NCBI GenBank assembly: GCA_016190485.1
Contig: JACPQN010000066.1
Location: 8,446 to 72,445, forward strand
DNA length: 64,000 bases
Reading direction: 5' to 3'
From: Chloroflexota bacterium
GTDB lineage: Bacteria > Chloroflexota > Dehalococcoidia > SHYD01
A program made the position numbers and the translations under genes. A model generated the notes under the pieces. The model had not been told where the DNA came from. It made no database searches and saw only the letters and a list, made by a program, of their open reading frames with translations. This document shows, in pieces, positions 31,108-46,055 of this stretch (position 1 is its first letter; the number at the start of each line of letters is the position of its first letter).

Positions 31108-31369
31108 TGGCTGACTCCCTTCCTCCTCGCGCTGGCGCTCACTGGAGTTGAAGGCGACGGCCCGTCCCATGCTTTCGAATGACGATGGCGCCACTCGTGC
31201 CGCTGCAACTGGCAGGATCATAGCATAGGGGTAAAGTCCCATTCCAGCCACTAGCCGAGGACTGAGGACTGCTGGCCGTGGGGGTAGGGCAAGGGGTGGT
31301 GGCAGTGGGCGGTTGACAGGGGGCACTAGAACGCATATTCTTGCGGCAGCATAGGTTAGGAGGAGATGA

Positions 31370-32536
31370 GTGGCTTACAGCCCCGTTTACGATGCCCCTC
31401 CGTTCACTGATTTCGCTTCAGTAACGCCGGATACACGCCTAGAAGAGCTGAATCTGAACTGGCGGGAGCAGGACCTTCCAGAGGGATCCCGTACAAAGCA
31501 CGTCCATCGTCTCCATCCCTACCTGGGCAAATTCGTTCCTCAACTAGTCGAAATCTTCCTGAGGAAGTACCAACCAAGGGTTGTGTGTGACCCATTCTGT
31601 GGATCAGGAACGACGCTGGTTGAAGCCAACGCTATGGGCATAGATGCAATTGGGTGTGACATTTCTCCCTTCAATGTCTTACTTACGAAAGTCAAGACTG
31701 CCGAGTACAACATTGCCAAATTGGAAAAAGAAATCAAGGACATTGTTACGAGGATTACTCTTGCCTTGAAGCCAGGGCTTTTTGAAGGTGAGGTCGAAGA
31801 CACTGACAATGCATATTTGCGAAGCTGGTACGCGCAGCGAGCAAGGGTCCAGCTTCTTTTCTTTAAGTCCCTGATTCCACAGTACGAACATCAAGATCTT
31901 CTCAAAGTGATCCTTTCGAGAGCAGCACGGTCGGCTAGGCAAACCACCCATTTCGACTTGGATTTCCCAAAGCGGCCGCAGACAGAGGATTACTATTGCT
32001 ACAAACATGGGAGGACGTGCCAGCCCACGAGCGATGCGCTGGGCTTCTTGACTCGCTATTGCTGGGACACGCTTAGAAGGATACGCGCTTTCTCGGAACT
32101 GCGAACTCGTGCTGCTGTGCTCTATAAGTGTGACGACTCTCGTAACATGGAGTTCCCAGAAGTAGACATGATACTGACCTCCCCGCCGTATGTGGGACTC
32201 ATCGACTACCACGAACAACACCGCTATGCCTACGAGCTGCTTGAAATGCCCATGCAAGAGGAGCAAGAAATTGGCGCCGCAAAAAGAGGTGCCTCGGAAA
32301 CAGCTCAGCGTGCGTATATAGAGAATATAGGCACAGTGTTTCGGAACCTTCGCGAGGGACTGCCTGCAGATGGGGTAGCGGTTATAGTGGTGCATGACCG
32401 TCGCAGGCTCTATGAAGGATTGGCAGAACAACTTGGGTACCGACAAGAACTGGAGTTACGCCGGCATGTAAACCGACGTACAGGCCGGAGAGCGGGAGAT
32501 TTTTACGAAAGCGTGTTGGTGTGGCGGAAGACATAG
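31370..32536 (+). CDS. DNA amino-methyltransferase (N4-C or N6-A; motif I before TRD before motif IV = alpha-like order)
   Basis: motif I VVCDPFCGSGTT, motif IV TSPPY; GC clearly lower than flanks; AGGAGG RBS. Confidence 0.75.
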   Translation: MAYSPVYDAPPFTDFASVTPDTRLEELNLNWREQDLPEGSRTKHVHRLHPYLGKFVPQLVEIFLRKYQPRVVCDPFCGSGTTLVEANAMGIDAIGCDISPFNVLLTKVKTAEYNIAKLEKEIKDIVTRITLALKPGLFEGEVEDTDNAYLRSWYAQRARVQLLFFKSLIPQYEHQDLLKVILSRAARSARQTTHFDLDFPKRPQTEDYYCYKHGRTCQPTSDALGFLTRYCWDTLRRIRAFSELRTRAAVLYKCDDSRNMEFPEVDMILTSPPYVGLIDYHEQHRYAYELLEMPMQEEQEIGAAKRGASETAQRAYIENIGTVFRNLREGLPADGVAVIVVHDRRRLYEGLAEQLGYRQELELRRHVNRRTGRRAGDFYESVLVWRKT

Positions 32537-32663
32537 ACCCTGAGGCGCTCGCAACCAGCGTAGGTCAGTGTTTCAGCGCAGGACCAGACATAGGGAAGCG
32601 AATTGTCGAGGCATTCCAGCAGACCTTTGCCAACCTCTTGCACGCAGAGTGCAAGCAAAGCGG

Positions 32664-33269
32664 ATGCGAGAGATCATTAGGGACAAGAATCCTTATTTAT
32701 ATCGCGCCAGCGGCGTAAACACTTGCCAGGAAATAGTTCAGCGGGCGCTGCAAGACTACATTAGCGCTAGTGTGGAGAATAATTTTGGTGCCTTCTTTGA
32801 GGCGGTTGCTAGGATATTCTCAGGAGGGGTTAAGCCCGTTGGGGGTGGTGAGGTTGACCTGGATGTGCGGAAGGCTGATGTGGCTTTCCTCTATGCGATG
32901 AAGTCGGGATCGAAGGGCTTCAACTCGTCAAGCTACGACAAAGCCAGGCGCGACTTATTATCGGCAGAACGCAGGCTACGTCAGGACAAAGTGCGAACGG
33001 AGAAGCGGATTGCGTTTGCGTATGGCAAGAGACAGGAAACAGATAAAGATGGCATTATCCAGCTGACTAGTAAGGCTTTTTGGGGAGAAGTAAGTGGTGA
33101 TCCACTCTTCTATAAGAAGCTGTTAAATGCCTGCGCGCTGTTATCTCCTTTGTATACTGCTGATCTACAGGCACCCTATGACCGTCTATTGGAAGAAGCT
33201 CATTCGCTGTTTTGTGAAGAAGATGGAATTAACTGGGATAAAGTGCTGAAGTTAGTTTTTGGTGAGTAG
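32664..33269 (+). CDS. candidate Type II restriction endonuclease partner of the methyltransferase (start uncertain: ATG 32568 or 32664, or GTG 32521 in another frame with a frameshift)
   Basis: low-GC ORF immediately downstream of the MTase; GEVDLDV...AFLYAMKSG could be a D...(D/E)xK core; an overlapping frame-1 ORF 32521..32718 also reads protein-like, suggesting a possible frameshift. Confidence 0.35.
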   Translation: MREIIRDKNPYLYRASGVNTCQEIVQRALQDYISASVENNFGAFFEAVARIFSGGVKPVGGGEVDLDVRKADVAFLYAMKSGSKGFNSSSYDKARRDLLSAERRLRQDKVRTEKRIAFAYGKRQETDKDGIIQLTSKAFWGEVSGDPLFYKKLLNACALLSPLYTADLQAPYDRLLEEAHSLFCEEDGINWDKVLKLVFGE

Positions 33270-33271
33270 CT

Positions 33272-33298
33272 TCATGCGCATCCTGCACTTCGCTGACC
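33272..33298 (+). repeat. 27-bp direct repeat, copy 1 (tcATGCGCATCCTGCACTTCGCTGACC = duplicate of the sbcD start)
   Basis: identical 27 nt at 33272-33298 and 34143-34169. Confidence 0.9.
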
Positions 33299-33447
33299 CT
33301 CGTTCGTGGTCCGCCAGCCAGGTGCTCACTTCGTTCAGCATGACATACTAGGGCACCAGTTGAGGACGACCTGGATGTTATTACGTGGGGATATAAGCCT
33401 GCTCGTATGCAACTAGGACAACAGTAGCCAATGATAAAACGAAAGAG

Positions 33448-33714
33448 GTGGTAAAGATGGCCCGATGCATCGTTGACAGCTGCACGGACTTCGCGACCCA
33501 TAATATTGGTATTCGGCTACGGCGACTAAACACCTCGGCAGTATGGGCTCCCAATACCGACGCCTTTGTTTGCGATGCCCACGCGACTGCAGGATTCAGG
33601 ATTCAGATTTTACTCACACCAAACTCAACAGGAACAATCCGGACAGAAGTTAGTTCGGTTCCTCCAGGCAGGATAGTTCGACGAACGACTCCGATCATCC
33701 ATCCGGCGCAGTGA
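33448..33714 (+). CDS. hypothetical small Cys/His-containing protein
   Basis: 88 aa ORF in the low-GC segment, CIVDSC...CDAH; no confident family. Confidence 0.25.
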   Translation: MVKMARCIVDSCTDFATHNIGIRLRRLNTSAVWAPNTDAFVCDAHATAGFRIQILLTPNSTGTIRTEVSSVPPGRIVRRTTPIIHPAQ

Positions 33715-33851
33715 TTATTTGTGCAGGACGGATTATATATGCAAAGCCGGAAGCGCTTGCACTACCTATATGTGGTGGTGAAGGCGCTCGAGACCGATGC
33801 CTTTGTGCTGACCGCATACTTGACCGATAGAGTAAAGAGGGGAGTCCAGCT

Positions 33852-34055
33852 ATGGCCGGAAAACTCGTGAAGATCTGGTACGATCCCGAAGGTGACTATC
33901 TGGAGGTGATCTTCGAGCAAAAGGAGGGCTACTTCCGGGAGACGGCCAGCGACCAGGTGATGGAGAAGGTCGACGTGGAAGGTAATGTCCTCGGCTTCTC
34001 TATCTTGCGGGTGAGCGCTCTGAAACAGAAGCCGCTAGAAGTCGCCCTGTCCTGA
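33852..34055 (+). CDS. DUF2283 family small protein
   Basis: KIWYDPEGDYLEVIF pattern (YDxExDxLxI) typical of DUF2283; GGAG RBS. Confidence 0.55.
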   Translation: MAGKLVKIWYDPEGDYLEVIFEQKEGYFRETASDQVMEKVDVEGNVLGFSILRVSALKQKPLEVALS

Positions 34056-34092
34056 ACGGTAGATGCCGCATCCCGCCTTGGCCCGTCATTGA

Positions 34093-34139
34093 CAAGCCCT
34101 CACCCTTACCCTCTCCCAGAGGGAGAGGGAGGTAGCTAA
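34093..34139. repeat. hairpin repeat family copy 3 (CCTCACCCT-TA-CCCTCTCCC-aga-GGGAGAGGG)
   Basis: read directly; just upstream of sbcD. Confidence 0.8.
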
Positions 34140-34142
34140 GAG

Positions 34143-34169
34143 TCATGCGCATCCTGCACTTCGCTGACC
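34143..34169 (+). repeat. 27-bp direct repeat, copy 2 (authentic sbcD start)
   Basis: identical to 33272-33298. Confidence 0.9.
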
Positions 34170-35455
34170 TCCATATCGGGGTGGAGAACTACGGGCGGGT
34201 GGACCCTGCCACGGGCCTCTCCACCCGGCTGGGGGACTTCCTGCGGGCGCTGGACCAGGTGGTGGACTACGCGCTGGCCAACGAGGTGGACCTGGTGCTC
34301 TTCTGCGGCGACGCCTACAAGAGCCGGGATCCGTCCCAGACCCACCAGCGGGAGTTCGCCCGCCGCATCATGCGCCTGACGGGCGGGGGGGTGCCGGCCT
34401 TCCTGCTGGTGGGCAACCACGACCTTCCCTACGCGGCGGGGCGGGCCACGGCGCTGGACATCTACCAGACCCTGGGGGTGCCTGGCGTGACCGTGGGGCG
34501 GGAGCTGGGGACGCAGGTGGTGGAGAGCCGCCGCGGGGAGCGGCTCCAGATCGTGGCGGTGCCGTGGCTCAACCGGAGCTGGCTGCTGGCCCAGGAGGAG
34601 CACAAGAACCTGGCCGCCCGGCCCCTGAACGAGCTGATGGAGGAGAAGCTGCAGCGGGTGCTGCAGGTGGAGTTCTCCCGCCTGGATCCGGAGCTGCCGG
34701 CGGTGCTGGCGGGCCACCTGGCCCATGCCGAGGCGGTGCCGGGGTCGGAGCGCCGGATGACAGTGGGCAGCGACCCGGCGTTCCTCCTGAGCACCCTGAC
34801 GGACCCTGGCGGCCCTTCGACAAGCCCTTCGACAAGCTCAGGACACCGCTCAGGACGCGGCATGGTGGACTACGTGGCCCTGGGGCACATCCACAAGCAG
34901 CAGGCGCACCAGAGCCGGGGGGTGCCTGTGGTCTACGCCGGCAGCCTCCAGCGGGTGGACTTCGGCGAGGAGGAGGACCAGAAGGGCTTCTACGTGGTGG
35001 AGATCGATCCGGCGCGGCCCGCGGGGGAGAGGCTGCGCTCCTACGACTTCGTGCCAGTGGAGGCCCGGGCCTTTGTGACCATCCGGGTGCGGTCTCATAG
35101 TGGGAACCCCACGGAGGCGGCGCTGCGGGCCATCGCGCGGCGGGAGCGAGACATCCGGGACGCCATCGTCCAGGTGCAGGTGGAGCTGGCCGCAGGCCAG
35201 GAGGGCCTGCTGGACGACGCGGCCATCAGGCGCGCGCTGGCTTCAGCGCACTACATCGCAGGGATCAGCCGCGAGGCGCCGGACAGCCCGCGGCGGCGTC
35301 TGGGCGAGGTGAAGGTGGAGGAGCTGGCGCCGCTCCAGGCGCTGGAGCTGTACCTGCGGGCCCGGGAGACGCCGTCGGAGCGGACGCAGGCGCTGCTGGA
35401 GTACGGTCGCCGGCTTATTGAGTCGCCTGAGGCGGCCAGCGAGATGGCGCCCTGA
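34145..35455 (+). CDS. sbcD: exonuclease SbcD (Mre11-type phosphoesterase) carrying an in-frame minisatellite insertion
   Basis: MRILHFADLHIG, GDxYK, GNHD metallophosphoesterase motifs; insertion encodes GGPSTSPSTSSGHRSG at 34811-34857. Confidence 0.85.
   Translation: MRILHFADLHIGVENYGRVDPATGLSTRLGDFLRALDQVVDYALANEVDLVLFCGDAYKSRDPSQTHQREFARRIMRLTGGGVPAFLLVGNHDLPYAAGRATALDIYQTLGVPGVTVGRELGTQVVESRRGERLQIVAVPWLNRSWLLAQEEHKNLAARPLNELMEEKLQRVLQVEFSRLDPELPAVLAGHLAHAEAVPGSERRMTVGSDPAFLLSTLTDPGGPSTSPSTSSGHRSGRGMVDYVALGHIHKQQAHQSRGVPVVYAGSLQRVDFGEEEDQKGFYVVEIDPARPAGERLRSYDFVPVEARAFVTIRVRSHSGNPTEAALRAIARRERDIRDAIVQVQVELAAGQEGLLDDAAIRRALASAHYIAGISREAPDSPRRRLGEVKVEELAPLQALELYLRARETPSERTQALLEYGRRLIESPEAASEMAP
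34811..34857 (+). repeat. minisatellite (cccttcgacaag x2 + ctcaggacaccg units) inserted in frame in sbcD
   Basis: 12-bp units read directly; same units at 37001, 40461, 43512 and in reverse orientation intergenically. Confidence 0.85.
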
Positions 35456-36582
35456 TGCAGGGGGCCTTCCGCATCGCCCGCATCGCAGGGGTGGAGATCA
35501 GCGTCCACTACACCTGGCTCTTCGCCTTCTTTCTCATCACCTGGACCCTGGGGATCGGGTATTACCCCCATGAGCACCCTGGGTGGAGCCCGCTCCTCTA
35601 CTGGGTCGCGGGCGGGCTGTCGGCCCTGCTGCTTTTCGGGTCGGTGCTGCTGCACGAGCTGGCCCACTCCTTCATGGCCCTGGCCCGGGGACTGCCGGTG
35701 CAGGGCATCACCCTGTTCATCTTCGGTGGGGTCAGCTCCATCCAGATGGAGTCGCAGAGCGCGGGGGACGAGTTCATCATCTCTGCCGTGGGGCCGCTGA
35801 CCAGCCTGGCGCTGTCGGGCGGCTTCTGGACGCTGTCGTCGCTGCTGCCCAACGAGAGCGTGGCGGGGGCCATGCTCCAATACCTCACCTTCGTCAACGT
35901 GCTGCTAGCCGTGTTCAACCTGGTACCGGGGTTTCCGCTGGACGGCGGACGGCTGCTGCGGGCGGCGCTGTGGGGCATCACCGGCAGCCTGTCCAGGGCC
36001 ACCGGCATTGCGGCCCGGGTGGGCCAGATGGTGGCCTTCCTGCTCATCGTGTGGGGAGTCGTGCAGCTCTTCTCGGGCAACATCCTGGGTGGGCTGTGGA
36101 TCGCCTTCATCGGGTGGTTCCTCAACAGCGCGGCGGAGTCCAGCCGCCAGGAGGTGACCGCAGGCGAGCTGTTCCGCCGCTTGCGGGTGGGCGACCTGAT
36201 GGACCCGTCGCCGGAGACGGTACCCCCGGAGCTTTCGGTGGACGCCCTGGTGCGCGACTACATCCTGCGCCGGGGCTGGCGGGCCCTGCCGGTGTGCCAG
36301 GACCGGCGACTGCTAGGCATCGTGAGCTTGACAGACGTGCGGGAGGTGGAGGAGCCGCGCTGGCCCGCGACCCGCATCGAGGAGGTGATGACCCGCGCGC
36401 CGCTGTACACCGTGGCCCCCGGGACGGAGCTGATGGAGGCGCTGGATTTGCTGGCGGACCACCGCATCCATCAGGTGCTGGTGGTGGAGGACGGCCACCT
36501 GGTGGGGCTGCTGACCCGCAGCCACATCCTGGAGTACCTCCAGTTGCGGGAAGAGCTGGGCTTCCGGGGGGCGCGCCGCTAG
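35455..36582 (+). CDS. site-2 protease (M50) family zinc metalloprotease with tandem CBS domains
   Basis: HELAHSF (HExxH), LDGG motif, 6 TM segments, C-terminal CBS pair; start overlaps sbcD stop (TGATG). Confidence 0.8.
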   Translation: MQGAFRIARIAGVEISVHYTWLFAFFLITWTLGIGYYPHEHPGWSPLLYWVAGGLSALLLFGSVLLHELAHSFMALARGLPVQGITLFIFGGVSSIQMESQSAGDEFIISAVGPLTSLALSGGFWTLSSLLPNESVAGAMLQYLTFVNVLLAVFNLVPGFPLDGGRLLRAALWGITGSLSRATGIAARVGQMVAFLLIVWGVVQLFSGNILGGLWIAFIGWFLNSAAESSRQEVTAGELFRRLRVGDLMDPSPETVPPELSVDALVRDYILRRGWRALPVCQDRRLLGIVSLTDVREVEEPRWPATRIEEVMTRAPLYTVAPGTELMEALDLLADHRIHQVLVVEDGHLVGLLTRSHILEYLQLREELGFRGARR

Positions 36583-36605: not shown

Positions 36606-37406
36606 ATGGCTATGAAGGATGTCTCGCGGGCGCAGGCCGTGGTCTTCGACCTGGACGGCACCTTGGTGGACACCTATGCCATCAACCTGAAGGCCACGCA
36701 GCACGTCCTGCGGCAGTTCCTGGGGCGCCTGCCGCCGGAGGAGGAGGTGGCGCCCCACTACGGGGCGCCGCTGCGGGAGATCATGGCGCACTTCGCGCCG
36801 GGCCAGGAAGCGGCCATGGTGGCCGAGTTTGAGGCCTACTACCTGGAGCATCAGGAGGCGATGGTGCGGCCCTTTGCGGGCGTCTCCGAGATGCTGCGAG
36901 TGTTGCGGCAACGGGGTTATCCCCTGGCGATCCTCTCCAACAAGCGCAAAGAGCCGGGGCTGCGGGAGCTGCGGGCCTGCGGGCTGGCGGAGCACTTCCG
37001 CCCTTCGACAAGCCCTTCGACAAGCTCAGGACACCGCTCAGGACACCGCTCAGGACAGCGCTCAGGACGCAGCTCGGTGCTGTTCCTGGAGGACCTGCGG
37101 GCGCCCAAGCCGGCGCCGGAGGCGCTGCGGCAGTCCGCGGAGCTGCTGGGGGTAGACGTGCGGCGAGTGCTCTACGTGGGCGATAGCGTCCTGGACGTGC
37201 AGTGCGCCCGGAAGGCCGGCGCCCGGAGCGCGGCCGCGCTGTGGGCCGCCGGGGATGGTTCGGCTGGGCTCACCACAAGTGGTTCGGCTGGGCTCACCAC
37301 AAGCCGGGAGCGAGTGCTGGCCCAGGAGCCGGATCACGTGCTGACGTCGGTGGCGGAGCTGCTGGCGCTGTGCCCGCCACTGATCGGTGATCCGCGGGAG
37401 AGGTGA
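36606..37406 (+). CDS. HAD-superfamily hydrolase (phosphoglycolate-phosphatase-like) with two in-frame repeat insertions
   Basis: motif I FDLDGTLVDT, motif II ILSNK, motif IV GDSVLD; insert PSTSPSTSSGHRSGHRSGQRSG (37001-37070) and tandem 24-mer GSAGLTTS x2 (37256-37303). Confidence 0.75.
   Translation: MAMKDVSRAQAVVFDLDGTLVDTYAINLKATQHVLRQFLGRLPPEEEVAPHYGAPLREIMAHFAPGQEAAMVAEFEAYYLEHQEAMVRPFAGVSEMLRVLRQRGYPLAILSNKRKEPGLRELRACGLAEHFRPSTSPSTSSGHRSGHRSGQRSGRSSVLFLEDLRAPKPAPEALRQSAELLGVDVRRVLYVGDSVLDVQCARKAGARSAAALWAAGDGSAGLTTSGSAGLTTSRERVLAQEPDHVLTSVAELLALCPPLIGDPRER
37001..37070 (+). repeat. minisatellite insertion in HAD gene
   Basis: gcccttcgacaagcccttcgacaag + (ctcaggacaccg)x3-4. Confidence 0.85.
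37256..37303 (+). repeat. perfect 24-bp tandem duplication in HAD gene
   Basis: ggttcggctgggctcaccacaag(t/c) x2. Confidence 0.85.
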
Positions 37407-37497: not shown

Positions 37498-37735
37498 CCG
37501 CGAGGCGGCGTGCTAGCAACTCCCGCATTTGCCTACCCACCACGAGCACAGGGACGTTCATGGTGGGCTCATAATGCCACCACAAACTCAAGATTCTTAC
37601 GGCGGCGAGCCTAGCGAAAACAATTCCAACGAACTTTTGAAATTCGCCCAATTACGGAGCTAAGTCGATCCATAATGTGACGTGGGGTGATGATATCGGG
37701 ACAGGTGCATACAAAAGCGAACGAGGAGGGGAAAG

Positions 37736-38077
37736 ATGGAACCTCAGGAGTCTGGATTCAATGTTCAGCTTCAGTGGCGACAGAGGTGGCAATCCGGGCT
37801 TGGGCAAGCGGCTGAACAGGGTGAAAAATCGTCGACGCTTGGCATTTGCGGTAGGAAAGAACATCTCCAGTTGCGCTTCTATTCATCAGATTTTGCATCA
37901 GATTTTTCCGCCACCGCCCAGTTTTCTTGGCGACAAGTTATGCAAGCTTTGATTAACAATAACCCTGGCCTCTTTGGAGTTCTTGAAGAGCCACTCCATC
38001 ACGTCTTCGCCGATGCACTGATAGAAATGGGGTTTGAAGTGCCCGGCTTCCCACCGGAAGATGACGACGATTTCTAG
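37736..38077 (+). CDS. hypothetical small protein with acidic C-terminus (EDDDDF)
   Basis: 113 aa ORF in an AT-rich (about 50% GC) island, GGAGG RBS. Confidence 0.3.
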   Translation: MEPQESGFNVQLQWRQRWQSGLGQAAEQGEKSSTLGICGRKEHLQLRFYSSDFASDFSATAQFSWRQVMQALINNNPGLFGVLEEPLHHVFADALIEMGFEVPGFPPEDDDDF

Positions 38078-38186
38078 AAAGACGCGGCAACACCGTAGAA
38101 ATGCTCATAGCGCTTGAGGTCTCTTTTCAAGAAAGGCTCGCTCGAATATCTTTCTTGCAGGCCTCGCGCGGAAAGGGAGAACTACT

Positions 38187-39488
38187 ATGGCGAACATTGA
38201 TGATCACCTGATTCGAAATGTGTTCGACCAATACACTCAGTTGGAAAATCGCCTGACCAACGCCTTGTTTCAGGTCTTTCGCCACGAGCCTGACATAGCT
38301 AGGGAGTTCGTGGTGTGGGCAGGCGGGCCGCCGCACCAACGCGAGCTGCTGCAACTCGCATGCCAGATGACGCCCGCGTCAAATCTAAGTGAACTCGAGA
38401 AAGAGGACTTCCCACGGGCAAGGACCATCCCAGACGGATGGATATTTGATCCCGAAGGCGAGTGGGCTGTAGTGATCGAAAACAAGGTGACTGCAACGCT
38501 AGAGCGCAATCAGATAGAGGGTCACATAACGACAGCGAGGGCTCTCGGATTCAGGGCTATCTTTCCTGTAGTCCTCACCGCGGATCGGGAGGAACCCCCA
38601 GATTTGCGCCAGTGGGCGCCCGCCGGAGTCACTGTGCGGTGGCGGCCGTGGAGAGAGCTATACGTGGAGCTGAAGCCGAAGGATTCGAGCTGGTGGGTTA
38701 AAGAGTTCCTCGGCTACATGGAGGAATTGGAGTTCAGATTTCACGAAGGAGGCAATTCGGAAGTGGAGCTGACAGGCTTTTCTGGGATCCCCTTCGACAA
38801 GGAACACGGGTACAACGCACTCCAGGCGCGTGCCCAATTGCTGGGCCTCATGGCGGCATTGCGGAAACATCCAGGGCTGCTGACGTGCTACCCAAATGTC
38901 CAGCCAGAAGGAAAAAAGACACCGACGTCGGGCGCCATGTGGGACACGATAAAATTCTCCCCTGAGGTCCGCACAACAGCGCCTCACCTTACCCTCGTCA
39001 TCGACCGCGATGACGTGCGACTTCAAGTGATTTTGCCCAATGCGGACAAAACCAAAGGCTGGCAGCGCCTGGTCAGACGAAAAAGAGAAGCGGTCGAGGA
39101 GATTCTGGAGCTCGTCCATGGGCAGGTCCGGAATCTCAGGGGCAGGCCGAAGTGTTTTCTCGACCTGTATCAGCGTCATTTCCTTTACTTGGGGGCGGAG
39201 GGCGTTATAGACGCCAGATTGGAAGTTGACCTGGACGCCGTCTTGGACAAGCAGGACGCGAAGATAGACGGGAAGGTTAAAACGCGCAGAGAATGGTGGC
39301 CGGCTGTATCTGGTCTCATTGCTGCCCCAAAGACGGGGGCAAATCTTGAGCTTTCCCTGGTGTTAAGGTACCGTTACTCAGACAGTGCCACGACGAGTGT
39401 CTTAAACAGCCCAGACTTTGTCGAGGAGGCCGCCGCGGCCTTCATTGCCCTTCACCCCTGGTATGACTTCCTCACCCAAGAAGAGTAA
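38187..39488 (+). CDS. hypothetical protein with N-terminal PD-(D/E)XK nuclease-like core
   Basis: E(20)...IPDGWIF-x12-AVVIENKV matches the E/PD/ExK restriction-endonuclease-fold arrangement; ~300 aa C-terminal region without recognisable motifs; low GC. Confidence 0.45.
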   Translation: MANIDDHLIRNVFDQYTQLENRLTNALFQVFRHEPDIAREFVVWAGGPPHQRELLQLACQMTPASNLSELEKEDFPRARTIPDGWIFDPEGEWAVVIENKVTATLERNQIEGHITTARALGFRAIFPVVLTADREEPPDLRQWAPAGVTVRWRPWRELYVELKPKDSSWWVKEFLGYMEELEFRFHEGGNSEVELTGFSGIPFDKEHGYNALQARAQLLGLMAALRKHPGLLTCYPNVQPEGKKTPTSGAMWDTIKFSPEVRTTAPHLTLVIDRDDVRLQVILPNADKTKGWQRLVRRKREAVEEILELVHGQVRNLRGRPKCFLDLYQRHFLYLGAEGVIDARLEVDLDAVLDKQDAKIDGKVKTRREWWPAVSGLIAAPKTGANLELSLVLRYRYSDSATTSVLNSPDFVEEAAAAFIALHPWYDFLTQEE

Positions 39489-39580
39489 ATCGAGCAAAGG
39501 GGCCTTGACTAGCCGAATTGCGTGGCCTTCTGCTGCATTTGCACATTTGTGTGACCAAGCCATTTTCCTGGAGGAGTAGT

Positions 39581-41275
39581 ATGAAGATCACCTGCTACGG
39601 GGGGGTGGGGCAGATCGGCGGCAACAAGGTGCTGCTGGAGGACGGCCTTACTCGCCTCTTTTTCGATTTCGGCATCCCCTTCGGCGACCGGGCACGTTTC
39701 TTCGAAGAGTACCTGAACCCGCGCCCCGGCGCGGGGCTGCTGGACGTGATGGAGATGGGGCTGCTGCCGCCCCTGCGCGGCATCTACCGCAGCGACCTGG
39801 TGCCGGCCGGCCGGTTCTGGGAGCGGGTGGAGCGGTCGCAACACCTGAGGCCCCACCTGCGAGACCTGGAGCGCCTGGACGGGGTGCTGGTCTCCCATGC
39901 CCACGTGGACCACAACGGGTATCTCTCCTTTCTTGATCCCGGAATCCCCATCTACTCCTCGGCCATGACGGGGTTCATCGCCAAGGCCATGCAGGACAGC
40001 GGACAGACGGACTTCGAGCGGGAGTCGGTGTACGCCGTGCCCCGGAAGGAGAGCGGCGGCGTGCTCACTACGGTGACCTCCAGCAGGTCGAATCCCGCGC
40101 CAGCGCTGCAGCGGCCCTACTACTTCCCCGACCTGGCCGATCTCAGCGCCGAGGCCCTGGACTTCTGGCGTCAGACGCCCGCGGCCCGTCCCATGGATGC
40201 CGTGCTCCCCCGACAGGCGGAGGGCATCGGCGAGCTGCCGGTGCGCTTCTTTCCCGTGGACCACTCCATCTTCGGCAGCAGCGCCTGCGCGGTGGAGACC
40301 TCCGCCGGCTGGGTGGTGTACACCGGCGACCTGCGCTTCCAGGGTGGGACGGCGGCACTGACTCGGGACTTCATCCGGGAGGCGGCCCGGCTCCGCCCGC
40401 GGGTGCTCATCTGCGAAGGGACACGCCTGTCGCCGGAGGGGAACGCCGAGGCGCTCTTCGGCCCTTCGGCAAGCTCAGGACACCGCAGGCTCAGGACGGC
40501 GCCCTTCGGCAGGCTCAGGACGGCGCCGGTGACGGAGGAGCAGGTGCGGGCCAACGCGCTGCGGGCCATCGGGGGCGCCAGCGGCCTGGTGGTGGCCGAC
40601 TTCGGGCCCCGCAACATCGAGCGGCTGCGGGCCTTCCTGGAGATCGCCCGGGAGACCGGGCGGCAGCTCGTGGTGCTGGACAAGGACGCCTACCTGCTGG
40701 GCGCGATGCGCCTGGTGGACTCCGGTGTGCCGGGGGTGGAGGAGGCGCCCAACCTGCTGGTGTACCAGGACCTGCGCGCCACCCTGGCCCTGTGGCAGCG
40801 GGACCTGCGCGACCGGCTGGCCAGCAGGATCGTTGGCCCCAGCCAGGTGCAGGCGCACCTGGGGGAGTTCATCCTCTGCTTCAGCTTCTGGGACATCAAG
40901 AACCTCATTGACATCGATCCGGGGGAGGGCCTCTACCTCTACTCCTCCAGCGAGGCCTATAGCGAGGAGCAGGAGCTGGACCTGTGGCGGCTGCGCAACT
41001 GGCTGCAGCACTTCGGCCTGACGCCCCGGGGTCTTCCCCAGGAGAGCACCGACGAGCGGGGCAGGAAGGTCTACAGGACGCCCCCCGGCGAGGAGGGCTA
41101 CCACGCGTCGGGCCACGCCACGGGCGACGAGATCCTGGCCATGGTGCGGGAGATCAACCCAAAAACGGTGGTGCCGGTGCACACGGAGCACCCGGAGCTG
41201 TTCGTGGAGGGACTGAAGGGGTCCGGAATCGAGGTGCGGTTGCCGGCGTACGGCGAGGCGCTGGAGTTCGGGTAG
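39581..41275 (+). CDS. MBL-fold beta-CASP nuclease (RNase J / Artemis-type family) with in-frame repeat insertion
   Basis: SHAHVDHNG (HxHxDH), ...ASGHA and PVHTEHPE (beta-CASP motifs B/C), N-terminus ITCYGGVGQIGGN like RNase J; insert GPSASSGHRRLRTAPFGRLRTAP at 40461-40523; GGAGGAG RBS. Confidence 0.7.
   Translation: MKITCYGGVGQIGGNKVLLEDGLTRLFFDFGIPFGDRARFFEEYLNPRPGAGLLDVMEMGLLPPLRGIYRSDLVPAGRFWERVERSQHLRPHLRDLERLDGVLVSHAHVDHNGYLSFLDPGIPIYSSAMTGFIAKAMQDSGQTDFERESVYAVPRKESGGVLTTVTSSRSNPAPALQRPYYFPDLADLSAEALDFWRQTPAARPMDAVLPRQAEGIGELPVRFFPVDHSIFGSSACAVETSAGWVVYTGDLRFQGGTAALTRDFIREAARLRPRVLICEGTRLSPEGNAEALFGPSASSGHRRLRTAPFGRLRTAPVTEEQVRANALRAIGGASGLVVADFGPRNIERLRAFLEIARETGRQLVVLDKDAYLLGAMRLVDSGVPGVEEAPNLLVYQDLRATLALWQRDLRDRLASRIVGPSQVQAHLGEFILCFSFWDIKNLIDIDPGEGLYLYSSSEAYSEEQELDLWRLRNWLQHFGLTPRGLPQESTDERGRKVYRTPPGEEGYHASGHATGDEILAMVREINPKTVVPVHTEHPELFVEGLKGSGIEVRLPAYGEALEFG
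40461..40523 (+). repeat. minisatellite insertion in beta-CASP gene (variant units cccttcggcaag / ctcaggacggcg)
   Basis: read directly. Confidence 0.8.
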
Positions 41276-41285
41276 GCAGACTTGC

Positions 41286-43179
41286 GATGTTGCTCTCAGA
41301 AGTCGAACTTGAAAATTTCAAGGGTGTATTCACGAGACAGCGCATTGGCGGGTTGAGACGAGTCAATACGCTCATCGGCCGGAACAATGGTGGCAAGACA
41401 TCTTTGTTGGAAGCCTTGTGGGCTGTCCGAGACTCTCTGGTTGGTGGGCAAGTGGCAGAAGATATGACGACGTTGTTGCCATTTCGTGAGGCTGATAGGG
41501 TGATGAGAATAAGGCTGACATTTGAACTCGAGCAGGAAGAATACCAGCAACTACGCGACCACTTGGAAGTCGATCTCCAGCCTAATATCACTACGATCCC
41601 TGCGGCCTGCACCTGGGAATTTGTTTGGGAGCCAAGCCTGGGCACTGGAAACAGGCTACTTCCAACTTCATGTACATTACGGCTGAATGACCGAAACTTG
41701 ACGGTTTGGGTCGCAGATAGTGCGGGTGATTTGAGGGCTGCGCGCTGGGATGAGGCGCGATCGTTCTACGTCAGTAGAAGGCAGGGACTGGTGCTTCAGC
41801 TTCACAGCATCGGGAGCGTCCAATCGCGTCTACGAGTACAAGGTCCCAATGATGCAGCGCAGTTCGGGATGAATCTTGCGCTTGGCTTTGCCCAAAAGTT
41901 GAGGTTTCGCAGAACAGTCCGGGTGGCCGACGATCGGTCGCCAGCGTCACAGAACAGCGAGCTAGATGAGCAAAGCAAGAACATCTCTCAAGTGCTTCTC
42001 ACGCTGAAAAACAACGAAGCGCAGGTTTTCGAGAGGATCGAGAACACTCTGTGCAGAATTCTGCCTGAAGTACGGGGACTTAGTACGCCCTTAGAGGGTA
42101 CTGAAACGGCCCTAAAGCCAGCCCTCGAAGCTAGCAGACTTGAGAAGCATGCCTTTTACCTGTCTGAAATGGGTTTCGGCACACAGCAGGTACTTGCTCT
42201 CCTGACTACAATCTTTTGCTCTCCCAGTGGAAGCCTAGTCTTGATCGAGGAACCCGAGATATGTCTTCATGCGGATGCCCAAAGAAGTCTCGCAAGTTTT
42301 TTGGTGGAGTACTCAAAGAAAACCAACACGCAATTTATAATGACTACTCATAGCCCCATATTCGCTCCGCAAGGAAGCGAAGGGGCGACTTACCTTGTTA
42401 AGTGGGACCAAGAGAATGGGACTACTTATTCCCGCGTTCGCGAGGGAGAAGCATCGATAATCAAAAGAGAGTTGGGATGGCGAAACGCGGATCTTTTCAT
42501 GAAAGACGGGGTTGTCTTTTGGGAGGGGGAGAGTGAGGATGCTGCAATGCCTATCCTTATTGATGCACTCGGTTATGGAGAAAGGATGCCCGCCATCGCT
42601 TCCATCAGTTTGCGTGGCAGTGTAGCGGATAGGCTGAGAGTGCTACGTGAGTTCCTTCGCTATCTTCAGGGTTCAGACCTGAAACCCTTTGTTTTCTCTG
42701 ACGACGACGAGCACGTGGCGACAACTATTCAGAACTTAATCGCTGAAGGTCTTCTGCCGCAATTGAACTACCACATTTGGGGAAGGAGTCCTGGAAATCT
42801 TTCTGACGTATTGTCAGGGTTGGAATTTGAGGATAATTTCCAGGTTTCGCAACTTATTGAAGCTGCCAACGCCCAGGCAGCGGAATCGGGTCAAGCTGAG
42901 AGACTAACTACTGACGGATTCAGGAAAAGTCGACAGACCATTAAGACAAAGAAAAAGACAAGCAAAGCACTCAACGACTATTTTCACAATAAAGTTGGTC
43001 GAGGGTTGGATAAACCCACGCTGAATAAAGCGTTAGCTCTTATGGTCGCTCGTGAGCTTCGAAATGAAATGCCGAGGTCTGTTCAAACATATGAATTCAA
43101 GGGGGCGATAAAAGATCTGTTCGATGTCCTGTATCCCGTTCGTAAAGGAGAGGCCGAGCAACCCGAGGACCAGATGTAG
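41286..43179 (+). CDS. OLD-family ATP-dependent nuclease (ABC ATPase + TOPRIM), class 1 / orphan GajA-like
   Basis: Walker A GRNNGGKTSLLEAL, Walker B LVLIEEPEICLH, H-loop FIMTTHSP, TOPRIM-like VVFWEGESED and DxD FVFSDDDEH; GC about 50% versus about 68% in flanks. Confidence 0.65.
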
Positions 43180-43181
43180 TC

Positions 43182-45839
43182 ATGGTCCCTCTGAAGCTGG
43201 CGCTGCGCAACTTCATGGCCTACCGGCGGCTGGAGCCGCCGCTGGACTTCACGGGCATCCACGTGGCGTGCCTCTCCGGGCCGAACGGGGCCGGCAAGTC
43301 GGCCCTGCTGGATGCTATGACCTGGGCCCTGTGGGGCCAGGCCCGGGCCCGGTCCGACGACGACCTGATCACCCTGGGCGAGAGCGAGATGGAGGTGGAG
43401 CTGGAGTTCGGCCTGGGGGAGGAGCGCTACCGGGTGCTGCGGAAACGGACCCGGGGCGTCCTGCGGCGGCCCGGTCAGTCCATCCTGGAGCTCCAGATAT
43501 GGGGTGGGGATGGCCCTTCGACAAGCCCTTCGACAAGCTCAGGACACCGCTCAGGACACCGCTCAGGACAGGGCCCTTCGATAGGCTCAGGACAGAGCCT
43601 GTTCCGCCCGCTGACGGGGAACACGCTGCGGGAGACGCAGCGGCAGATCGAGGGGCTGCTGCGGCTGGACTACCAGACCTTCATCAACAGTGCGCTGCTT
43701 CTCCAGGGAAGGGCCGACGAGTTCACCCTGAAGGCGCCGGGCGAGCGCAAACGGGTGCTGGGGGAGGTGCTGGGCCTCTCCCGCTACGACGCCTATGAAG
43801 CCCTGGCCAGGGAGCAGGCCCGCCGCCGGGAGGGCGAGCTGCAGGGCCTGCGGGCCGAGATGACCTCCCTGGAAGAGCAGGTGAGCCACCGGGAGGAGTT
43901 TGAGTCGGAGCTGCAGGGGATCCGGCGGGCGCTTCAGGAGATGAGCATCCAGAGCAAAGCCCAGGAAGAGCGGCTGCGTGCGCTCCAGGAGGCGCAGCGG
44001 CTGCGGGCAGAGAAGCAGGCCCGCCTGGTCGAGGCGCGTGCTCGGACGCAACAGGCTGAGGTGGAGCTACAGGAGCAGCGGCAGCGAGAGGGGGCGCAGA
44101 TGGCGCGCCTCCAGCAGTTCCGGGAGATGCTGGACCAGCGGGAAGCCATCGAGCAGGGGCTGGAGCGCTATCGGAGGCTGGTCGCGGCCGACGATGCGCT
44201 GTCGGCCGGGCTGCAGCAACTGGTGGCGCTGCGGGAGCAGGCCACGGCGCTGGAGCGTACGGTGGAGGCGGCCAGGAGCCGGCTGGAAGCACAGGCCCTG
44301 GTCTTAGAGCGGGAGACCACCGGACTGCGAGAGGTGGCGGCGCGGCGGAGCGGCTTGGCCGAGGCGCAGCAGGCGGCGCGGCGGACGCTGGCGGCCCTGG
44401 CGGAGAAAGACGCAGAGCTCAAGAGCCAGCGGGAGGCGCTGGAGGCGCTGGCGGGGCGCATCGGCGTGCTGGAGCACAGCAATCAGGAGATCACCCGCCA
44501 GGGGCAGGAGATCCGGGCCAAGGCCGAGCAACTGGCCCACCCCGGCGTCCCGGGGGTGTGCCCCCTGTGCGGCACTGAGCTGGGGCCCGAGGGTCACCAG
44601 CGGATCCTGGAGGAGTACCAGGGGGAGCTGGAGCGCCAGCGGGAGCGCTATCGCGAGAACGACCGCGCCATCAAGGAGCTTCAGAAGGAGCAGCAACAGC
44701 GCCAGGCCGGCGCGGCGGCCCTGGAGGCGGCCACGAACCGAGAGCGGGCCGCGGCCCAGGCCCAGGCGGCCACTGCGGCGCAGGGGCTGGCGGAGGCGGA
44801 GAAGGCGGCCACATCCCTGGTCGAGGCCGAGGCCCGCCTGAAGACGATCCAGGAGGGCCTGAGGGCCAACGCCTATGCGCCGGCGGAGCAACAGGCGCTG
44901 GTGGAGGTGCAGCGCCAGATCGCCGGCCTGGGATATAACCAGGAGGAGCACCGGCGCGTGCGCGAGGAGCTGGCCGCCTCAGGCGAGTGGCTCGCCAAAG
45001 GCGAGCGCCTCCAGGAGGCCCTGCGCCGATTGCCCGCGGAGGAGACGGAGCTGGCCAGCGTGCGGGAGGCCGCGGCCCGCTGGGAACAGCGGGCCGCCCA
45101 GGAGGCGGCGCTGGGCGCGGCGCTGGCGGAGGAGCTGGCGGCCCTGCCCGATACCGCCCAGGAGACGGTGGCCGCCCAGCAGAACTTGGAGCAGACCCGC
45201 TCTCAGCTCATGCAGGCCAATGCCGAGCTGGGGCGGGTGCAGACCCTGGTGGACCGCTGCCGGGAGCTGGAGGGCAACATGCGGGAGCGGCGGCGGCAGA
45301 TGACCCAGACGGAGGTAGAGAAGGGAATTTATGAAGACCTCTCCCTGGCTTTCGGGCGTCGGGGGGTGCAGGCGTTGCTTATCGACGCGGCGCTGCCGGA
45401 GCTGGAGGAGGAGGCTAACAGACTCCTGGGTCGCATGACTGACAACTGCCTCAGCCTGCGCCTGGAGACCCAGCGCCAGACCCGCGGCGGCGGCATGGCG
45501 GAGACGCTTGACATAAGAATTGCGGACGAGCTGGGGACCCGGGCCTATGAGCTGTACAGCGGCGGCGAGGCCTTTCGGATCAACTTCGCGCTGCGCGTCG
45601 CCATCTCCAAGCTGCTGGCCCGGCGGGCAGGGGCGCCCTTGCCGACCCTGGTGATAGACGAGGGCTTCGGCACTCAGGACGCTGCGGGCCGGGAGAAGCT
45701 TATCGAGGCGGTGAACGCCATCGCGGGGGACTTCGAGCGGGTGCTGGTGATCACCCACATCGACGAACTGAAGGACGCCTTCCCGGTGCGGATCGAGGTG
45801 ACCAAGACGCCGGAGGGGTCACGGGTGGAGGTGGTGTGA
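43182..45839 (+). CDS. sbcC: exonuclease SbcC (Rad50/SMC-like ATPase) with in-frame minisatellite insertion
   Basis: N-terminal Walker A GPNGAGKSALLDA, long coiled coil, zinc hook CPLCG, C-terminal signature/Walker B; insert at 43512-43597. Confidence 0.85.
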   Translation: MVPLKLALRNFMAYRRLEPPLDFTGIHVACLSGPNGAGKSALLDAMTWALWGQARARSDDDLITLGESEMEVELEFGLGEERYRVLRKRTRGVLRRPGQSILELQIWGGDGPSTSPSTSSGHRSGHRSGQGPSIGSGQSLFRPLTGNTLRETQRQIEGLLRLDYQTFINSALLLQGRADEFTLKAPGERKRVLGEVLGLSRYDAYEALAREQARRREGELQGLRAEMTSLEEQVSHREEFESELQGIRRALQEMSIQSKAQEERLRALQEAQRLRAEKQARLVEARARTQQAEVELQEQRQREGAQMARLQQFREMLDQREAIEQGLERYRRLVAADDALSAGLQQLVALREQATALERTVEAARSRLEAQALVLERETTGLREVAARRSGLAEAQQAARRTLAALAEKDAELKSQREALEALAGRIGVLEHSNQEITRQGQEIRAKAEQLAHPGVPGVCPLCGTELGPEGHQRILEEYQGELERQRERYRENDRAIKELQKEQQQRQAGAAALEAATNRERAAAQAQAATAAQGLAEAEKAATSLVEAEARLKTIQEGLRANAYAPAEQQALVEVQRQIAGLGYNQEEHRRVREELAASGEWLAKGERLQEALRRLPAEETELASVREAAARWEQRAAQEAALGAALAEELAALPDTAQETVAAQQNLEQTRSQLMQANAELGRVQTLVDRCRELEGNMRERRRQMTQTEVEKGIYEDLSLAFGRRGVQALLIDAALPELEEEANRLLGRMTDNCLSLRLETQRQTRGGGMAETLDIRIADELGTRAYELYSGGEAFRINFALRVAISKLLARRAGAPLPTLVIDEGFGTQDAAGREKLIEAVNAIAGDFERVLVITHIDELKDAFPVRIEVTKTPEGSRVEVV
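43512..43597 (+). repeat. minisatellite insertion in sbcC
   Basis: gcccttcgacaag x2, ctcaggacaccg x3, gcccttcgataggctcaggacag. Confidence 0.85.
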
Positions 45840-45967: not shown

Positions 45968-46003
45968 CTTGTCCTGAGCACCGTCGAAGGGCTAGCCGAA
46001 GGG
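45968..46003 (-). repeat. intergenic copy of the minisatellite unit in reverse orientation
   Basis: cttgtcctgagcaccgtcgaagggctagccgaaggg = reverse complement of the cccttcg...ctcaggacaag units. Confidence 0.7.
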
Positions 46004-46055
46004 TCGCCTCTGGCTTCTCGCAATGACATTCGGGGCGTTCTTCAGGGACACCACA

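Follow-up and report, generated by a model that had tools for sequence, protein, structure and literature searches.

A gene for an OLD-family protein lies between a beta-CASP nuclease gene and sbcC in a 64,000-nucleotide stretch of a Chloroflexota genome (Dehalococcoidia; contig JACPQN010000066.1), the whole of which we refer to as the window. Because the same cassette is found at the same spot in two distantly related lineages, this gene is a long-standing optional cassette in a DNA-repair operon and not a one-off recent insertion. The reading that we favour, with a probability of roughly 0.6, is that it would encode a single-chain, Class-1-like OLD defence nuclease and form an accessory cassette co-expressed with beta-CASP and sbcC. 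The gene belongs to a co-directional string on the + strand at 34-46 kb, given here with guanine-plus-cytosine (GC) content at third codon positions (GC3) where relevant; lengths are in nucleotides (nt) or amino acids (aa), and related loci carry L numbers.

34145..35455, + strand: sbcD, which opens the syntenic block (TIGR00619, 5e-40; synteny with L004)
35455-36582, + strand: S2P/CBS protease gene
~36.65-37.41 kb, + strand: HAD hydrolase gene
37736-38077 and 38187-39488, + strand: low-GC block of a 113-aa and a 433-aa open reading frame (ORF)
39578..41275, + strand: native beta-CASP/MBL + RMMBL nuclease gene, the upstream flank (GC3 0.92)
41276..41286, + strand: 11-nt spacer from the beta-CASP stop to the OLD ATG (9 nt in L001, 18 nt in L009; sequence not conserved)
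41287..43179, + strand: OLD-family gene, 630 aa (NCBI protein MBI2886847.1)
43177..43184, + strand: OLD stop TAG, then TC, then the sbcC ATG, as tight as the TAGTG overlap of relatives
43182..45839, + strand: sbcC, Rad50-like with a zinc hook, the downstream flank (GC3 0.89)

The initial annotation had started the OLD frame at 41286, 10 nt after the beta-CASP stop. The frame itself is real, as is its 2-nt gap to sbcC (OLD stop ending at 43179, sbcC ATG at 43182); its start, however, is the ATG at 41287, where homologue alignments begin at M1, and the upstream gap is 11 nt. A longer, GTG-initiated frame (40984-43179) was rejected, because it overlaps the beta-CASP gene in a different frame and the homologues begin at the ATG. 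The gene had also been described as embedded among those for SbcD, the beta-CASP protein and SbcC. Beta-CASP and sbcC do flank it, but sbcD lies 5.8 kb upstream, beyond the S2P/CBS and HAD genes, a second low-GC island and beta-CASP, and to that extent the claim was overstated. A promoter and terminator scan of 33-47 kb returned chance-level counts and showed no internal terminator that would separate beta-CASP, OLD and sbcC, and the folding of an inverted repeat spanning the OLD-sbcC junction (43135-43289) was not significant (z = -1.64). Both junctions recur at 99.96% identity in L110, a Logan assembly made independently, and the architecture is repeated in two more assemblies; a chimeric metagenome-assembled genome or other assembly artefact was rejected on these grounds.

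Domains and motifs of the OLD protein

By its sequence and predicted structure, the product is an OLD-family protein with an ABC ATPase at approximately residues 1-395 and a Toprim/helical nuclease domain at approximately residues 396-615, as first proposed. The N-terminal part contains Walker A, signature/Q motifs, Walker B, D-loop and H-loop of an ABC-type ATPase and matches the Pfam families AAA_15 (9e-26) and AAA_21 (9e-25). We judged conservation on 13 subfamily members, the homologues being 27-46% identical to the window protein. Every motif quoted in the initial annotation is present and conserved across these 13, and the alignment adds an EFED motif and K576.

41377..41400, + strand: Walker A/P-loop, G31-R-N-N-G-G-K37-T38; G31, N33, G36 and K37 invariant
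42235..42270, + strand: Walker B and D-loop, L317-V-L-I-E-E-P-E-I-C-L-H328; E321, E322, P323, E324, L327 and H328 invariant; aligns with 'IEEPEMYLH' of Thermus scotoductus OLD (TsOLD, 6P74)
42343..42354, + strand: H-loop, T353-T-H355-S356; aligns with 'THSP' in TsOLD and GajA
42523..42537, + strand: Toprim acidic motif, E413-G-E-S-E417; E417 nearly invariant, position 413 E or D in 12/13; aligns with 'EG..E' of TsOLD and GajA
42700..42708, + strand: Toprim DxD motif, D472-D-D474; D472 and D474 invariant
42823..42834, + strand: E513-F-E-D516 motif of the C-terminal domain; F514 and E515 invariant, E513 and D516 nearly so
43012..43014, + strand: K576 in the C-terminal helical region; invariant

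The conserved glutamate and DxD of a Toprim domain are thus both present (E413/E417 and D472xD474), and the C-terminal model has the corresponding fold. The EFED motif may be catalytic. K576 is likened to a conserved lysine of OLD nucleases, reportedly described by Schiltz et al. in 2019/2020. A profile search for the Toprim domain gave a divided answer: the C-termini of 7 of the 13 subfamily members match Pfam OLD-like_TOPRIM (PF20469; best E 3.9e-11), whereas the window protein alone stays below threshold (E 0.03, 15.3 bits vs a cutoff of 23.2). Among PADLOC models, AriA, HEC-01A, GajA and Old were matched. The best score belongs to AriA models (1.7e-26, over the ATPase domain), and such scores are generic at the ATPase level, being common to the AriA, HEC-01A and NsnB models; the GajA model PDLC00067 covers residues 316-588 (4e-24) and reaches into the C-terminal domain. 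The subfamily profile matches TsOLD at E 1e-27 and GajA at ~1e-19, in an alignment that spans the Toprim 'EG..E' strand.

Structure prediction points the same way. The full-length AlphaFold2 model (predicted local distance difference test, pLDDT, 80; predicted template-modelling score, pTM, 0.66) has GajA, TsOLD and the retron-Eco8 OLD protein as its top Foldseek matches. Modelled by itself, the C-terminal 235 aa (pLDDT 88, pTM 0.84) fits best on the OLD C-terminal regions 6NK8, 6NJX and 6NJV (TM 0.55-0.64, prob 1.0), crystal structures from B. pseudomallei and X. campestris, with the next non-OLD fold far behind. Three alleles that share only 44-46% identity have all kept the same catalytic residues, which indicates that the gene is intact and under purifying selection.

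Occupied and empty junctions in related lineages

The beta-CASP gene is widespread and native in Chloroflexota/Dehalococcoidia (1,769 homologues at E<1e-20), and in L004/L005, L010, L007/L008, L095, L096 and L099 it leads directly into sbcC with no OLD gene. Identity of these beta-CASP proteins to that of the window is 65% for L004/L005, 70% for L010, 52% for L007/L008 and 46-50% for L095/L096/L099. Synteny of L004/L005 with the window extends from sbcD to uvrA, without OLD, and the gene is likewise missing from L010, the closest sampled relative; the stop codon of beta-CASP and the start codon of sbcC overlap as TAGTG in L004 and in L010. That beta-CASP in relatives runs straight into sbcC shows that OLD is an addition to an older beta-CASP-sbcC unit. 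OLD as a dedicated beta-CASP partner was rejected as a general rule, given eight loci in which beta-CASP leads into sbcC or rmuC without OLD and the more than 1,700 beta-CASP homologues. The beta-CASP/RMMBL gene is conserved right before sbcC across Dehalococcoidia/Chloroflexota (54.6 bits vs an RNase J cutoff of 400), and we found no literature on this pairing. sbcD is several genes from beta-CASP in the window and L004, and is not within 10 kb upstream of beta-CASP in L007.

At >40% mutual identity the window protein groups with only two others in ~5.8 billion clusters, those of L001 and L009, and all three genes occupy this junction. In L001 the order is beta-CASP-OLD-RmuC-SbcC, where the RmuC stop recreates TAGTG and the beta-CASP protein is 65% identical to that of the window. 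L009 comprises the last 13 beta-CASP codons, OLD and the first 32 sbcC codons, again with TAGTG. The three alleles are 44-46% identical to one another and form one clade (neighbour-joining bootstrap 100/100), the next relatives being at most 34% identical. OLD is present in three of the five sampled lineages of the host clade and missing from the equally close L004 and L010; among the four lineages with data, beta-CASP identities of 65-71% form a star-like pattern, so that OLD carriers and non-carriers are interleaved. Between the window and L001, OLD identity is 44% and SbcC identity 51%, and this similar divergence is compatible with co-divergence of OLD with its host. An RmuC-family gene of native GC lies between OLD and sbcC in L001 (4145-5176) and right after beta-CASP in L006 (11628-12659), a placement which makes the beta-CASP 3' junction a recurrent gain/loss site for DNA-recombination genes.

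Base composition sets the gene apart from its surroundings. Its GC is 0.50 (0.57/0.41/0.52 by codon position), against 0.68 for the window and 0.69-0.71, with GC3 of 0.89-0.93, for the neighbour genes. It is the lowest-GC 1.9-kb stretch in the 64 kb (z = -6.3 vs the non-island background), and within 100 nt of the ORF ends GC falls from 0.67 to 0.49 and rises again from 0.48 to 0.68, bearing out the claim that GC drops exactly over this frame. The composition is foreign at all three codon positions and, together with the OLD-free orthologous site in relatives, is that of a horizontally acquired island. The other carriers resemble it: GC3 of OLD is 0.45 in L001, vs 0.75-0.82 for neighbours, and 0.51 in L009, where the flanks have a GC of 0.66-0.68. 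At this depth the synonymous sites of the hosts are saturated, but the GC3 of OLD stays near 0.5 in every host.

The initial annotation had called the gene a precise recent insertion into an existing operon. The insertion is borne out by the empty junctions and the TAGTG overlap; its recency is not, as L001 and L009 are carriers as well. Nor is the insertion strain-specific, since these two hold monophyletic, 44-46% identical alleles at the same junction. The opposite case raised there, a gene at native GC in every relative, does not describe the data either, with OLD in three of five lineages and at low GC in all carriers. We consider it improbable that a defence gene from a low-GC donor was inserted recently, precisely and in this strain only, into a neighbourhood that is incidental. 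Such an event would account for the sharp GC edges, the lowest-GC stretch of the window and the absence of OLD both from L004, with its full synteny, and from L010, the closest sampled relative (beta-CASP 70%); incomplete amelioration, too, argues for a short residence in each high-GC host if synonymous sites are neutral, and the orf113-orf433 island (the 113-aa and 433-aa frames), 80% nucleotide-identical to a contig from an unrelated background, indicates that recent transfer into this operon occurs. Against it, three monophyletic alleles of 44-46% identity share an identical junction, and independent captures at one site are unlikely. Around the ORF we found no integrase or other mobility gene, target-site duplication or terminal inverted repeat, only short chance-level repeats, and an empty tRNA scan left no tRNA integration site.

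No close donor homologue emerged either. Searching GTDB species representatives with an alignment of the three alleles gave no OLD relative; JGI metagenomes gave generic N-terminal ATPase matches only, none beside sbcC, beta-CASP or sbcD; and phage and plasmid collections held no close homologue, the best coverage being at most 70% at ~25-30% identity, with the exception of a 76-residue stretch (41%) in phage P2-EC5. The phage protein family phrog_4747 does match the OLD subfamily (4e-32). Distant subfamily members, at most 34% identical, include P0004 in a type I restriction-modification (R-M) island, P0129 beside an integrase and P0128, which stands alone after a sugar-transferase-like gene.

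The simplest history is a single acquisition at the junction, in the ancestor of a small clade of high-GC Chloroflexota or close to it, and then either losses in some lineages or an exchange of occupied and empty alleles within the clade. This history leaves the unameliorated composition unexplained; repeated recent capture would fit the composition but not the shared site, the monophyly and the lack of a mobility signature. One possibility is that low GC persists because the nuclease is potentially toxic and selection favours AT-rich or rare codons in its gene.

Known OLD systems and the proposed role

Gene neighbourhood is the main criterion by which OLD classes are told apart (PMC10568477, PMC12796447). 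To place the window protein we identified all ORFs at 29.5-52 kb and scanned 30-47.5 kb against Rfam. Among these ORFs there was no UvrD-like helicase, reverse transcriptase or AriB, which agrees with the earlier statement that neither a GajB-like helicase nor a separate AriB is nearby, and the Rfam scan gave no family at gathering score and no retron non-coding RNA (ncRNA). As a single gene, OLD resembles Class 1, whose members (P2 Old, TsOLD and Vibrio cholerae Vc OLD) are portrayed in the literature as lone genes whose neighbourhoods vary (PMC10568477, PMC12796447). In contrast, the window clade shares one fixed, operon-tight neighbourhood, all three members lying between beta-CASP and sbcC or rmuC-sbcC; it is ~15-21% identical to characterised members, and the isolated C-terminal domain of the window protein superposes better on the Class 2 structures 6NK8 and 6NJX than on 6P74.

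The other classes differ more. Gabija GajA (Class 2) has the same two-domain architecture, matches through PDLC00067 and supplies the top full-length Foldseek structures, but no UvrD/PcrA-like GajB gene adjoins the window OLD or lies within 10 kb on either side; the flanks are beta-CASP and sbcC in the window and L009, and beta-CASP and rmuC-sbcC in L001. For Class 3 (retron Eco8) there is neither a reverse-transcriptase ORF nor an msr/msd ncRNA. PARIS (Class 4) offers the best PADLOC score, that of AriA over the ATPase domain, yet there the ATPase AriA and the Toprim nuclease AriB are two genes, whereas here both parts are fused in one 630-aa ORF and no DUF4435/AriB gene is present. Archaeal Cran1 (Class 5) is likewise an OLD member with a conserved operon context and a role that is likely chromosomal rather than mobile (PMC12796447); unlike the bacterial, patchy and compositionally foreign window OLD, it is essential and has a membrane-protein partner. 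We rate the window OLD as Class-1-like in being a single gene and atypical in its fixed neighbourhood, and its clade, with three members, as a variant and not a new class.

An anti-phage or anti-foreign-DNA role is most likely, judging from family membership and from published work in which OLD proteins are defence nucleases (PMC10568477, PMC12392090). The ABC ATPase would be the sensor or switch of a two-metal Toprim nuclease joined to it in one chain, with no dedicated partner gene. A cassette of foreign composition would have entered the beta-CASP-sbcC junction in the clade ancestor, or been exchanged within the clade, and then been retained in at least three lineages while missing from at least two. 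OLD would be transcribed with the beta-CASP-sbcC operon, with translational coupling probable; aberrant DNA would be recognised ATP-dependently, and Toprim cleavage of DNA or tRNA would follow (tRNA as reported for P2 OLD). As a further and less certain step, given that SbcCD in E. coli clears away the hairpins and ends that activate P2 OLD, co-expressed SbcC may keep OLD silent until a phage blocks or overloads end-processing.

A functional link between the position of OLD and SbcCD is conceivable, though we hold it only tentatively. In E. coli, the triggers of P2 OLD are reported to be DNA ends and hairpins at replication origins, SbcCD counteracts its activation, and delta-sbcD potentiates defence (preprint, bioRxiv 10.64898/2026.07.10.737580); another report links Gabija to RecBCD-antagonising phages (PMC12407980). 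The likeness is that P2 OLD activity is tied to host end and hairpin processing, including RecBCD, and that OLD here sits in the sbcC transcription unit. The difference is that the P2 link is genetic and in trans, with old on a prophage far from sbcCD, whereas here it is purely positional and the proteins are distantly related. A stronger version, which we regard as rather doubtful, is that the clade forms a new context class hard-wired into the SbcC/beta-CASP operon and guarding end-processing, OLD being held off as long as SbcCD and beta-CASP remove ends and hairpins, and firing once a phage inhibits them. AT-rich rare codons would then be selected, for example to throttle translation of a toxic nuclease, and such selection would explain the failed amelioration in three alleles of 44-46% identity.

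Fixed position, tight spacing and an intact frame in three lineages also suit a different account, in which OLD is a domesticated repair factor, a working subunit or accessory of beta-CASP/SbcCD(/RmuC) end-processing that is no longer an immune gene and is comparable to Cran1. OLD and SbcC have diverged alike (44-46% vs 51% identity), the neighbours are DNA-metabolism genes only (beta-CASP, RmuC in L001, SbcC), and the non-defence OLD class provides a precedent (PMC12796447). We nevertheless think this unlikely: OLD is missing from the equally close L010 and L004 and from all the more distant beta-CASP-sbcC operons examined, its composition is strongly foreign at all three codon positions, and the wider subfamily occurs in integrase and R-M contexts.

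OLD could instead be a functional defence gene that is merely a passenger, riding in an operon whose gene boundaries tolerate insertions or whose embedding averts deletion, with no interplay with SbcCD or beta-CASP. This rival deserves weight, if less than the reading that we favour. Three low-GC islands lie at gene boundaries of the operon (R-M at 31.1-34.2 kb, orf433 at 37.4-39.5 kb and OLD at 41.3-43.2 kb), and RmuC comes and goes at the beta-CASP 3' junction (L001, L006). However, OLD alone is common to diverged lineages at one junction, the other two islands being found in neither L001 nor L004, and an experimental OLD-SbcCD interplay is known in E. coli.

Several points tell against the Class-1-like defence cassette that we prefer. 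The conserved context has a basis of n = 3 from the ~5.8 billion clusters searched, and the closest characterised proteins are only ~15-20% identical to the window OLD. GC3 of 0.45-0.52 in all three OLD hosts fits neither simple vertical descent nor independent capture. Vc OLD acts independently of RecBCD (PMC12392090), so dependence on end-processing is not general in the OLD family, and Cran1 is a non-defence protein (PMC12796447). The same operon also holds two more low-GC islands, the type II R-M system before sbcD and the PD-(D/E)XK-like gene before beta-CASP, and the position of OLD could therefore be a mere permissive hotspot without a link to SbcCD.

Surrounding islands and repeats, and implications

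Immediately before sbcD, at 31340-34142, a third low-GC island carries a type II R-M pair and a DUF2283 gene.

31370-32536: N6/N4 methyltransferase gene of the R-M island (PF01555)
32568-33269: EcoO109I-like endonuclease gene of the R-M island (PF14511, 6.5e-30)
33852-34055: DUF2283 gene of the R-M island

An exact 27-nt copy of the sbcD 5' end (TCATGCGCATCCTGCACTTCGCTGACC) lies at 33272-33298, 871 nt before the real one at 34143-34169, and this displaced copy suggests successive insertions at the sbcD start. The orf113-orf433 block falls in a PD-(D/E)XK-like family; of its 37 homologues, one carries the annotation PD-(D/E)XK nuclease. Positions 37513-39442 of the window are 80% identical in nucleotide sequence to positions 1-1882 of ENA contig L107, where a different beta-CASP gene, of matching low GC and 35% identical to that of the window, begins 1 nt after the block. 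The L107 beta-CASP is 45% identical to those of Thermoplasmatales-labelled contigs, so that the same block precedes two very different beta-CASP genes.

Four genes of the operon have an in-frame insertion of a GC-rich repeat whose period is 12 nt (GCCCTTCGACAA / GCTCAGGACACC units), by which the SbcD, HAD, beta-CASP and SbcC proteins gain peptides such as GPSTSPSTSSGHRSGHRSGQ.

34800-34873: GC-rich repeat copy
36988-37073: GC-rich repeat copy
40461-40530: GC-rich repeat copy
43501-43602: GC-rich repeat copy
15308-15329: further GC-rich repeat copy
near 45983-46008: reverse-complement GC-rich repeat copy

Its 22-nt core has seven matches in the window, with none expected by chance, and the repeat is missing from the low-GC OLD and orf433 genes. 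The window beta-CASP protein has 565 aa, and its orthologues in relatives are 25-33 aa shorter. The HAD gene contains, at 37256-37303, an exact 24-nt tandem duplication (TGGTTCGGCTGGGCTCACCACAAG, two copies) that yields a repeated SAGLTTSG peptide.

OLD nucleases are among the commonest building blocks of bacterial immunity, and activation of Class 1 is still being worked out; in the current E. coli picture, RecBCD and SbcCD mask the DNA structures that activate OLD. If OLD is built into the sbcC transcription unit across deep divergence, this would be independent comparative support for the SbcCD link; should the position reflect no more than a permissive hotspot, what is left is a rare member of an OLD subfamily in an unusual place. 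The foreign composition, kept in three hosts while the protein diverged by more than half, makes a clean case for setting recency of transfer against selection, and the same operon with and without OLD in sister lineages would provide a simple test system.

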